A DNA stretch of 64,000 bases. Source: a virus. The position numbers are program-made. Location of the stretch: IMG/VR virus record IMGVR_UViG_3300026233_000021; one strand, 5' to 3'. Position 1 is the stretch's first letter. Every line of letters begins with the position of its first letter. Of this stretch, positions 48,001 through 51,000 are shown in pieces.

Positions 48001-51000
48001 AAGGGCATGGTGAAGGTGTCAGCCTCTTCCCCATCCTTGGAATCGCCCTTGACCATGATCTTGTACAGGCAGCCGGAGAACAGGCGCCATTCGGGATCAC
48101 GCAAGCACCGCTCCAGCTCCTCGGGCGTGTCGGGGAGCCGGTTCAGGGGAGCACTGTGGACGCGCGCGGCCACAGCCTCAATCCTCCTCGTCCGCCGGGT
48201 CTTGCTTCACCTGCAGCGTGGAGCCCGCGCGGGGGCCTGTGCGCTCCGGGTCATCTGCAATGGGCGCGAAGCCGTTGCCGTTCTCCTTGGAGATGCGATG
48301 CAGCAGCGCGGCCAGCGGGTCTGACTTCTGCTGGTTGTCCCTCTCGTACATGCCCAGGTACTTCCAGATTTTTTCTGCGAAGGCCTCCTTGCTGTGCGTC
48401 AGGACCTGCAGGCCATCTTTCGTACGCTTCACGCCGGCATACAACTGGGCAGCGGCTGGGCTCAGGTAGCGGGTGTCCTTGATGACCTCGCGTGCATATC
48501 CATCCCCAACGCATGCAGTGCAGTCCGGGTGCGGCGGCCGGTGGGGGTTGAAACCGATGCCGCCTTCTTCATCGAAATCCTCGGGCGCCTTGCCTTCAGC
48601 ACGCCATGACTCGCGTGCCTGGTTCATCTCGCTGACGGTGCGCTGGTAGCGGAAGTTCTCCCCCCAGCAATGGCGGCAGCATGCGACCTTGGTCTCGATC
48701 AGTTCGCGTGCATCGGCTGTAGCGATCAGCCAAGCCTGCTGCAGCATGGCGTCGGCAGTGATCTGCGTGCGCTCCTGCTGCTGCTTTCGGGCTTCCGCAA
48801 TCGCGACTTGGATGTGAGGTTTTGACAGGTTCTCAGAGGCGATCTGCCGGGCAGTCTTGGAGCTGTAGCCGGCTCGAATCGCCGCCTGGGTTCCATTCAG
48901 GTCCACCAGGAATTCATCGATGAACTTCGACTCCCTCGCGGTCAGCGCCTGGGCATCCGTGCTCTTGATGCGGGCGGCCTTTTTTGCCGGGGCCTTCTTC
49001 AATGCGGGTTTCGCGGTCGCGCTCGTAGGCTTCTTGGCCGCTGGGCGCTTCGCAGGAACGGCAGAGCCTGCGGCCTTCTTGGGGGCAGCAGGCTTCTTGG
49101 GGAGAGGTTTCTTTGGAGGCTCGGACTTGCCGGCAGGACGTTGGGCCATGGCCGGAAGTGTTCCGGCATGGCCTAGGGCCGTCGAACCCTAGCCGGGGCG
49201 CTCCGCGCGACGCGCCACATTGCGCAACAGTTGCGCATAGAATTCCGGCATGACAGCCAAACCACCCACCGCCCACACGGCCGAAGAAATCACGGAATGG
49301 ATGCAGCGCAATGGCCTCACGCAGACCGCTGCAGCCGAGGCCCTGGGTATCTCACGCCGCATGCTGCTGTACTACCTGACCGGCGAGAAGCCCGTGCCCC
49401 GCACCGTGGCCCTGGCCTGCCTGGGCTGGGAAGTGGAGCGCACAAACGCGGCTTGAGTGGCTTCTGAAAAAAGGCGTTGACTGCGCAATCATTGCGCATT
49501 ATTATTCTTCCCATGGCAGCAACAAGCGGCCACTGGCCCGGCAGATCCGGGAAGTCTCGGCCGCACAGGTCGAACGCACCAAAGGGGAAAAACCATGTCC
49601 TACCTCATCAGCAACGGCCAGATCGTCGCCAAGACCTCCGCCACCCTGGCCAGCGGCCAAAGCGTTGCATTCAGCGGCACCCGCGTGGCCGAGGAAATCA
49701 ATGCCGGGCGCCAGTGGAACCTGGTCAACGCGCAACGCGCCACCATCGGCAACGGCAAGACCTGGGATGCAAAGTGGGCCAAGCTGGAAGATGGCCGCAT
49801 GGCCAGCGAGATCAACCCCGGCGAATTCTTCATTGCCTGACTGCTATAGTGGTGCCGTCCAGATAGGCGCCGACTGCCGAGCAGGCAGCTTAGGAAATAC
49901 CGCAGTGATGGTGCTCCATCAGCGGGCTCCGCTCTCTCCACTACCGAACAGGTAGCTTCTCTGCCGCATAGGCAGCACCACCGGAGATTGATGATGCAAA
50001 CCGAAGACCGGGAATTTGATGCCGAGGTGCGCGCCTTCGTTGCCTCGTTCGGCTGCGTGCAGCGCGCCCGCTATGGCCGCTGGTTGGCCTGGCTGGACCC
50101 AACGCACGACTTTGTGCGCGAGGGCCTGCAGCCGCCTGGGCAGGTCAACGTCTACCTGCACGGCGAACCCAAATGCACCGCCCAAAACAGCTACTGGGAC
50201 GGCCAACCGCCCATAGGCTTTGCACGGGGCAAGCCCCTCTTTGGCGGGCCGCTGGACTTGCGGAAATCCGCCGACCGGGAGCTATGGCGCCAGGCGTGGG
50301 CCGCGCGCCCGTATTTCGAGAGCGCGGAATCGGCGCGCCGCAAGATCGAAGACTGGATCTGGGACAACCGCCCCGACATCGTGCGTACGGCAAGGAATGA
50401 GGTGCGCGAGGCGATTGCCTACCGCCGCCGCATGAGCTGGAAAGCCCGGGAGCCGGCCCATGCCTGAGTGGCGCATCTACCAGGGAAACACCCTGTATTG
50501 CCAAACCGATTGGGCGCCCATGGCCGTGGCGGCCTGGGACCGGGCCGCCCGCGACACCAACACCGAGGATGAGCGCACCGAGGTGGTATTGGAGAGGGAC
50601 GGCCAGCTGCTGGAGCGTGTACGGCCGCGCCGTGCAGGACACCCTTGGCCCGACAGTCGCACCACAGTGCCAGGGCTGGGGGACCTGGCGGCGGCCATCC
50701 TGCAACTGGCACGCGCTGCAGGCATCGACGCCACCGCGCTGGCCGATGAGATGACACGCAACGGCCTACCCACCGCACGCAGCCGCCTGGACCGCATCCG
50801 CACCATCTCGCGCGACAACAGCGCGCATACATCAAGCGCCGAGCTGATGGCCATGTGCTATGCAGCCGTGGGAATTTTGCGCAAAAACGAAAAAGGGGGT
50901 TGACTGCGCAATGATTGCGCAATAGTATTGAACCCATGGCAGCACACCGCCGCCAGCGGCGCCTCCCGTCAATGAGGGGCAAGTGAGAACCACAATGAGC

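Follow-up and report, generated by a model that had tools for sequence, protein, structure and literature searches.

A larger, very distant relative of AcrIF4 in a putative anti-CRISPR operon of a Delftia/Comamonas prophage

The 64,000-nt stretch of viral DNA considered here (IMG/VR virus record IMGVR_UViG_3300026233_000021, called the window below) carries a gene whose product is a true, very distant, and larger relative of AcrIF4, a protein inhibitor (anti-CRISPR, or Acr) of type I-F CRISPR (short palindromic repeats, clustered and regularly interspaced) systems. The likeness is well beyond chance. Judging by sequence and predicted fold, this AcrIF4-like protein is probably an AcrIF4-type inhibitor, which would bind the Csy complex at Cas8f and block the recruitment of Cas2/3. 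No published description of diverged AcrIF4 homologues was found in the literature, and the protein, larger than AcrIF4 and remote from it, would seem to be a novel version of an anti-CRISPR type already known, one that enlarges the AcrIF4 family. The gene is placed as follows.

49991..50467 (more likely 49994..50467), plus strand: AcrIF4-like gene, product of 158 or 157 amino acids (aa)

The AcrIF4 reference used was the 100-aa protein P0016 from the annotated genome of phage JBD26 (L002:3178-3477), residues 63–99 of which agree letter for letter with PDB 7JZW chain J. In a BLASTP comparison, residues 122–147 of the AcrIF4-like protein align with AcrIF4 74–99, with 11 of 26 identical (pairwise expectation value, E, 5e-5). 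This match takes in the W, R.D.V..ARN, and EA..YR residues of the C-terminal likeness that an initial annotation, made from the sequence alone, had pointed out; the weaker N-terminal match mentioned there is also recovered, as residues 12–36 on AcrIF4 8–31 in the family profile alignment, and the excess in length, put at about 60 aa, is 57–58 residues. Overall identity to AcrIF4 is 16–18%. A phmmer search of the PDB with the single AcrIF4-like sequence matched no chain and so missed AcrIF4, from which it follows that the relationship is remote. With a profile of the family (alignment A2, described below), the two AcrIF4 entries came out on top of all 177,635 distinct PDB sequences, at E 0.02 and 0.032, the next entry being at E 1.1. 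Aligned directly by hhalign, A2 and AcrIF4 gave a probability of 87.7% and a score of 39.0 over 91 columns (AcrIF4 residues 8–99), compared with a mean of 11.1 (standard deviation 2.4, maximum 22.3) for 300 shuffled versions of AcrIF4 and 14.1 for the reversed sequence. The same alignment puts H-H-G-R-V-E-M-V-E-G-E-N-G-Y-F of AcrIF4 onto the P-P-G-Q strand region of the family. When diverged homologues were sought from the AcrIF4 side, only two clusters of identical fragments were returned, so no profile could be built from that direction.

Comparison of predicted folds leads to the same protein. An AlphaFold2 model made with a seven-sequence alignment had a predicted local distance difference test score (pLDDT) of 65.7, and one made with A2 had a pLDDT of 86.9 and a predicted template modelling score (pTM) of 0.78. 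With both models, a Foldseek search of 350,542 PDB chains placed two AcrIF4 chains first and second (E 0.016–0.1, probability 0.98–1.00, template modelling score [TM] by target 0.58–0.65). The structural alignment to AcrIF4 spans 90 of 94 residues, including the beta domain, while the runners-up align over 44–60 helical residues only. Rows for E2 ubiquitin-conjugating enzymes in the Foldseek output (TM 0.12–0.15, probability <0.1) were discarded as noise. In the AlphaFold DB clusters the sole confident match is an unnamed 96-aa protein (TM by hit 0.73); the ESM Atlas gave no usable match, and the protein's own model there is poor (pTM 0.35). Membership in the AcrIF4 family, as first proposed in the initial annotation, is thus borne out both by profile (top PDB matches, hhalign, and shuffles) and by fold (Foldseek), with AcrIF4 ranked first each way.

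AcrIF4 itself has a helical domain (alpha1, alpha2, and alpha3) and a beta domain of two antiparallel hairpins (PMC7797054). The A2 model has helices at residues 2–18, 40–44, 93–101, 112–126, and 128–152 and strands at 21–25, 31–35, 51–55, 62–66, 76–78, and 81–83. This model keeps the AcrIF4 fold: one helix at the N-terminus, a pair of beta-hairpins, and, at the C-terminus, two helices that pack with the first. Three additions relative to AcrIF4 can be distinguished: a short predicted helix that follows strand 2; a stretch of some 45 residues separating strand 4 from helix 2, predicted to form a small beta-hairpin and a helix followed by W-A-A-R-P-x-F; and, at the C-terminus, a basic tail some 10 residues long. 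Only some 15–25 residues, at roughly 67–90 and predicted as a beta-hairpin, are specific to the subfamily of the AcrIF4-like protein.

This last distinction comes from the wider family. A search of 5.8 billion protein clusters returned six full-length relatives at 49–96% identity, plus one frameshifted copy, and an exhaustive phmmer search of 1.84 billion representatives returned 19 true relatives of 120–173 aa; one candidate member, P0032, was rejected as a repeat-protein false positive. Alignment A2 consists of 24 sequences from phages and metagenomes (P0007–P0013 and P0021–P0038 without P0032), seven of them close relatives and 17 distant. The AcrIF4-like protein is 28–96% identical to members of the family, with the same predicted elements and all ten of the columns that are invariant across the 24 sequences (P48, P49, G50, W103, A104, F109, A115, W122, R127, and R145). 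The consensus reads E-V ... G-R-W-x-A-x-L-x-P ... L-P-P-G-Q ... W-A-A-R-P-x-F-x-S-x-E-x-A ... W-I-x-x-N-R-P-D-I-V ... A-I-A-Y-R. Family members have a median length of about 140 aa (range 120–173). The segment from P-P-G-Q to W-A-A is 20–53 residues long (median 37), and at 48–53 residues is longest in the AcrIF4-like subfamily; its equivalent in AcrIF4 is only about 15 residues, with W-A-A-R-P-x-F missing. Across the 24 relatives, strand 4 and helix 2 are regularly separated by a helix and an invariant W-A-x-x-P-x-F, both absent from AcrIF4. Because the segments are longer throughout the family and the W-A-A-R-P-x-F motif is general among the relatives, it is AcrIF4 that stands out, as a trimmed outlier. 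Previously treated as an orphan fold, it looks from these sequences like the smallest, trimmed member of a wider, unnamed family of phage proteins. The idea of an AcrIF4 carrying an insertion therefore holds in part: the extra residues are real, and about 15–25 of them are peculiar to the subfamily, but with relatives of 120–173 aa the difference seems to lie mostly in what AcrIF4 lacks. The further suggestion that the insertion adds a second target or broadens specificity is not supported, since nothing computed here speaks for it.

Among Acr families that have a Pfam model or a solved structure, none other than AcrIF4 was matched. In Pfam, neither the AcrIF4-like protein nor any of 23 relatives has a family; a match to LcnG-beta (E 0.01, short of the cut-off) is spurious and was rejected as a short tryptophan-rich coincidence of 16 residues around R-W-L-A-W-L-D-P. 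PHROG likewise has none for the AcrIF4-like protein, and neither collection has a family for AcrIF4. Searches with family patterns found no relative in 185,579 species genomes, and tblastn found none in 50,697 phage records.

Some of the distant members have neighborhoods of interest in themselves. P0030 (173 aa; L100:540-1523) has an extra N-terminal segment of 45 residues and is followed by a gene for a 69-aa KorA-like helix-turn-helix (HTH) protein; the pair is inserted beside Mu-like baseplate genes, in a layout resembling the loci of anti-CRISPR and anti-CRISPR-associated (acr-aca) genes in Mu-like phages. Two other distant members are preceded by genes for proteins of 76–80 aa (L011:70-312 and L012:3695-3925) that belong to one shared family (41% identity, E 9e-17). 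These have no Pfam match and no detectable similarity to the AcrIF8 homologue described below, and they may represent another candidate inhibitor.

The open reading frame (ORF) of the AcrIF4-like gene is as the initial annotation described it, 49991–50467 and 158 aa. In frame +2 it is open from a TTG at 49988, includes an ATG at 49991 and another at 49994, and ends with the stop codon at 50465–50467. The second ATG is the likelier start because close homologues use the equivalent codon and because a GGAG (49983–49986) lies 7 nt 5' of it; the product would then be 157 aa rather than 158. Pairwise ratios of nonsynonymous to synonymous substitution (dN/dS) against two close relatives are 0.18–0.32, from which the ORF is judged to be under purifying selection; it is a real gene. 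It is also covered at 99% identity or better by contigs from RNA libraries of three studies. These are a weak hint of expression and no proof of transcription, because DNA can be present in such libraries. In the copy at L006:8001-8475 (GCA_025666275.1, a 6.85-Mb genome), a stretch of C residues is longer by one C and the frame is lost after residue 83; this could be either a pseudogene or a homopolymer sequencing error.

The gene belongs to a 2.3-kb cassette on the plus strand of a prophage with a P22-type portal, flanked on one side by the small terminase gene, which is on the minus strand, and on the other by the early genes. The other features of the cassette are listed here in order.

49221..49238, no strand assigned: palindromic operator, copy 1, TGCGCAACAGTTGCGCA-type, just 5' of the HTH gene
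49250..49456, plus strand: gene for an Aca1-like HTH repressor, 68 aa (P0004), Pfam HTH_31 at E 4.5e-7
49477..49505, plus strand: sigma-70-like promoter TTGACT-17-TATTAT, presumed promoter of the acr operon
49595..49840, plus strand: AcrIF8 homologue, 81 aa (P0003), first gene of the operon, Pfam PF25699 AcrF8 at E 7.2e-16
49869..49975, plus strand: three hairpins resembling type I-F CRISPR repeats, CTGCCG-N-AGGCAG type, lying after acrIF8 and before the AcrIF4-like gene
50460..50903, plus strand: partner gene, 147 aa (P0002), its start overlapping the AcrIF4-like stop
50900..50928, plus strand: duplicate of promoter and operator, a 79% copy of 49466–49537

The palindrome occurs in three copies, at 49221, 49482, and 50905, the second of which (49482–49498) falls between the –35 and –10 hexamers of the promoter at 49477–49505. 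The region has two promoter-like sites where 0.4 would be expected. P0004 is 41% identical to Aca1 of JBD26 over 51 residues (pairwise E 8e-11), and P0003 scores 58.5 bits against PF25699, for which the cut-off is 27. Taken together, the AcrIF8 homologue, the Aca1-like HTH protein, the putative operator-bearing promoter, and the prophage setting indicate that the AcrIF4-like gene lies within a genuine acr operon. The unit at 50900..50928 marks where this operon ends and a second, small one begins. The second operon (50983–51524) encodes two proteins without a Pfam family, one acidic (104 aa, pI 4.3) and one basic (76 aa, pI 11.6). The hairpins resemble the I-F repeat of Comamonas MAG43, a metagenome-assembled genome (MAG), and the minimum-energy fold contains two of the three. 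Contigs from RNA libraries of two studies start at 49977–49979, right after the third hairpin (stem end 49975), while others end at 49936–49954 and two bridge the site. The ends near the third hairpin would fit partial cutting of the operon RNA, of the Cas6f type, before the ribosome binding site, although as evidence for it they are weak.

The array of HTH gene, AcrF8 homologue, AcrIF4-like gene, and 147-aa gene recurs in two other loci (L003 and L006) and four IMG/VR contigs. A further locus, L004, has the AcrF8 homologue, the AcrIF4-like gene, and the partner, with an AcrIC5 homologue slightly upstream and no HTH gene within the available part of the locus. Among the subfamilies found, only that of the AcrIF4-like protein adjoins AcrIF8 homologues. 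A near-identical prophage in Delftia acidovorans MMO-42 (large terminase, TerL, 97% identical) is without the whole 2.3-kb cassette, as expected of an exchangeable accessory locus. At the cassette site the MMO-42 prophage (L025:1-3000) has genes for proteins of 104 and 218 aa, on the main strand of the phage and beside the small terminase gene.

In its arrangement the operon can be compared with the acr-aca1 operons of the Pseudomonas Mu-like phages JBD30 and JBD26, which also have a strong promoter with an inverted-repeat operator, an Aca1-related HTH repressor, and several small inhibitor genes in a row. It differs from them in that the repressor gene is upstream with its own copy of the operator, not at the 3' end of the operon; in that the promoter-operator unit is duplicated 1.4 kb downstream; and in that the cassette, which lies between small terminase and early genes of a prophage of the P22-portal type, is antisense to the phage modules on either side. 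For AcrIF4 itself (JBD26 gp37; PDB 7JZW and 7YHS, chain J), the shared features are the C-terminal helix motif R-x-D-[IL]-V ... A-R-N ... E-A ... Y-R, the two acidic positions and the arginine that correspond to D8, D89, and R97, and the setting in a phage acr operon, adjoining an Aca1-type repressor and with the stop codon overlapped by a downstream gene. AcrIF4 differs in its length (100 aa rather than 157/158), in having H-H-G-R where the AcrIF4-like protein has P-P-G-Q, in lacking the beta-hairpin, helix, and W-A-A-R-P-x-F between strand 4 and helix 2 as well as the basic C-terminal tail, and in its host, Pseudomonas aeruginosa rather than Delftia/Comamonas.

A target is present in a host of a near-identical prophage. 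TerL of the prophage is 98% identical to that of a near-identical prophage in a Comamonas MAG, as compared with 97% for D. acidovorans MMO-42. This MAG has a complete type I-F system (Cas2/3, Cas8f, Cas5f, Cas7f, and Cas6f) and an array with 28-nt repeats at 60-bp spacing. Type I-F was the only CRISPR system found in the host of the near-identical prophage, other types not having been searched for. Within the same bacterial family, 17 of 151 sampled genomes have Cas8f. The Comamonas Cas8f is a close relative of the P. aeruginosa one (E 1e-113). None of the seven spacers of the Comamonas MAG43 array has a match in the window beyond chance words of 9–15 bases. In the I-F locus of MAG43 (L081:8268-12998), the Cas2/3 ORF as called is 1335 aa, with about 180 residues before the Cas2 domain, and an ORF of 236 aa without a Pfam match lies between cas2/3 and cas8f.

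Clamped by the Cas7f backbone on one side and by Cas8f on the other, AcrIF4 has its helical domain on the middle region of Cas8f, with salt bridges D8–K216, D89–R210, and R97–D213, and its beta domain on helix 1 of the Cas8f helical bundle via D20/P21, L39, and F54 (PMC7797054). DNA still binds, but the hold on the bundle blocks the rotation needed for Cas2/3 recruitment, and this bundle contact is essential for inhibition (PMC9637919). In the hhalign register, from alignment alone, D8, D89, and R97 correspond to E12, E137, and R145 of the AcrIF4-like protein; the first position is acidic in 24 of 24 family members, the second is E in 19 of 24, and the third is R in all 24. On the other side of the interface, R210, D213, and K216 are R212, E215, and K218 in the Comamonas Cas8f, and R299 and R302 of the helical bundle are R301 and R304. 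The conservation of E12, E137, and R145 is consistent with a retained hold on the Cas8f middle region. A predicted complex of the Comamonas Cas8f (alignment A4) with the AcrIF4-like protein (A2) scored 0.00 in both runs, without controls, and is neutral on binding.

By this scheme, the AcrIF4-like gene would be transcribed from a strong promoter with an operator for the Aca1-like repressor, alongside the AcrIF8 homologue and the repeat-like hairpins. The protein would then insert itself, like a wedge, between Cas8f and the Cas7f backbone in the type I-F Csy complex of the host, and the Cas8f helical bundle would be unable to rotate after DNA binding, leaving Cas2/3 unrecruited.

Several observations weigh against an AcrIF4-type action. 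The conserved acidic and arginine positions could equally be structural rather than contacts. The bundle contacts are not kept: D20/P21 correspond to R25/A26, L39 to Q47, and F54 to T63, although the loop alignments around these residues are uncertain, and the family consensus is L at the L39 position (12 of 24), with D-P at the turn in some members. The AcrIF4-like protein has a pI of 9.3 and a net charge of +4, whereas AcrIF4 has a pI of 5.25 and binds via an acidic surface. Distant members of the family lie amid unannotated small phage genes without a recognisable acr or aca neighbour. The family-invariant P-P-G-Q and W-A-x-x-P-x-F are missing from AcrIF4, and for that reason the conserved features may serve something that AcrIF4 does not do. 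Finally, the E-values of single searches are modest (0.016–0.03), so that the case for homology lies in their agreement. As for the bundle, the extra residues are inserted directly after strand 4, corresponding to the side of AcrIF4 that faces it, and the enlarged beta domain may supply other contacts there. Because of the combined pattern of residues, charge, and insertion site, the arrangement envisaged is the same docking site with a rebuilt, larger face toward the helical bundle or backbone.

Some of the same observations would be explained by an anti-defence protein of AcrIF4 fold with another target or step, such as a type I-C or I-E complex, another surface of Csy, Cas2/3, or a non-CRISPR defence, its enlarged beta domain and basic surface having given it a new specificity. 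The loss of the bundle-contact residues, the reversal of charge, and the family-invariant motifs absent from AcrIF4 all point that way, as does the AcrIC5 homologue in the L004 array, by which such loci are not restricted to I-F; a further I-F inhibitor would also be less necessary where AcrIF8 and the repeat-like hairpins already cover that type. The three salt-bridge positions facing the Cas8f middle region are, however, conserved on both the Acr and the Cas8f side, several inhibitors of one system are common in acr operons, and I-F is the sole CRISPR system found in the host of the near-identical prophage, within the limits of that search. A different target is on balance considered unlikely.

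The partner gene raises another alternative. In L003, L004, L016, and L011, diverged AcrIF4-like genes are succeeded by homologues of P0002 that overlap them in the same way; the pairing is kept in five diverged loci, and the alignment of the partners (A3) has 30 invariant columns. P0002 has no Pfam family, its C-terminal half shows only slight signs of an HTH, a TetR-HTH match is weak (E 0.058), hhalign against Aca1 gives a probability of 11%, and scores in the ESM Atlas are below 0.9. It may act as a second inhibitor, or as a new regulator of the Aca type. It is also conceivable that the AcrIF4-like protein is no inhibitor but belongs, with the possibly DNA-binding 147-aa protein, to a conserved phage module of two genes, for instance as a regulator partner or co-factor, and that AcrIF4 was recruited from such a family. 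The partner does follow members just 34–38% identical to the AcrIF4-like protein with the same start/stop overlap in the five loci, the family is wider and more tightly conserved (10 invariant columns in 24 sequences) than many Acr families, and its distant members lie in unannotated arrays resembling early genes. An acr gene overlapped by a downstream regulator is, however, the classic acr-aca layout, and AcrIF4 is itself overlapped by aca1 in JBD26. Other family members have no such partner, P0030 is paired with the small KorA-like HTH gene inside a Mu-like module for the baseplate, a placement that Mu-like phages also have for acr-aca pairs, and the AcrIF4-like gene is under the same operator-bearing promoter as AcrIF8. 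A role confined to such a module is thought quite improbable.

That the likeness is accidental, a common helix-hairpin arrangement plus a short amphipathic helix in a protein unrelated to AcrIF4, is very improbable: no single E-value is strong (Foldseek, 0.016; hmmsearch, 0.02) and identity is low (16–18%), but AcrIF4 was first across the whole PDB in three largely independent searches, the alignment of 90 of 94 residues includes the beta domain where runners-up reach 44–60 helical residues, the shuffle control fell far below the real score, and the gene sits in an acr operon with an Aca1-like neighbour, as AcrIF4 does.

An AcrIF4-type inhibitor in this position would be an incremental rather than a surprising finding. 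Its homology to AcrIF4 is a second, independent line of evidence for the Delftia/Comamonas cassette as an anti-I-F island. With at least 24 diverged clusters, the AcrIF4 family also offers natural variation with which to map the surfaces that matter when the helical bundle of Cas8f is locked, a test case for the shrinkage or growth of Acr proteins, and candidate inhibitors both of type I-F systems beyond Pseudomonas and of tools derived from I-F, among them CRISPR-associated transposons with Cas8f complexes. More speculatively, P-P-G-Q, W-A-A-R-P-x-F, and the enlarged beta domain might form a second functional surface in full-size members, AcrIF4 being a cut-down offshoot of an older, widespread family. 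Full-size members, the AcrIF4-like protein included, would then lock the Cas8-type helical bundle in two or more Cascade subtypes or would engage a further partner such as the 147-aa protein. This is a doubtful proposal at present; if it were true, the full-size members would be broad-spectrum or self-regulating inhibitors rather than narrow ones.

Elsewhere in the window, two tyrosine-recombinase ORFs lie to the left of the prophage, at 3508–4587 and 9654–10952, one of them with an integron-integrase-like C-terminal region. The drop in GC content to 48–59% around them suggests that this is a separate mobile region.

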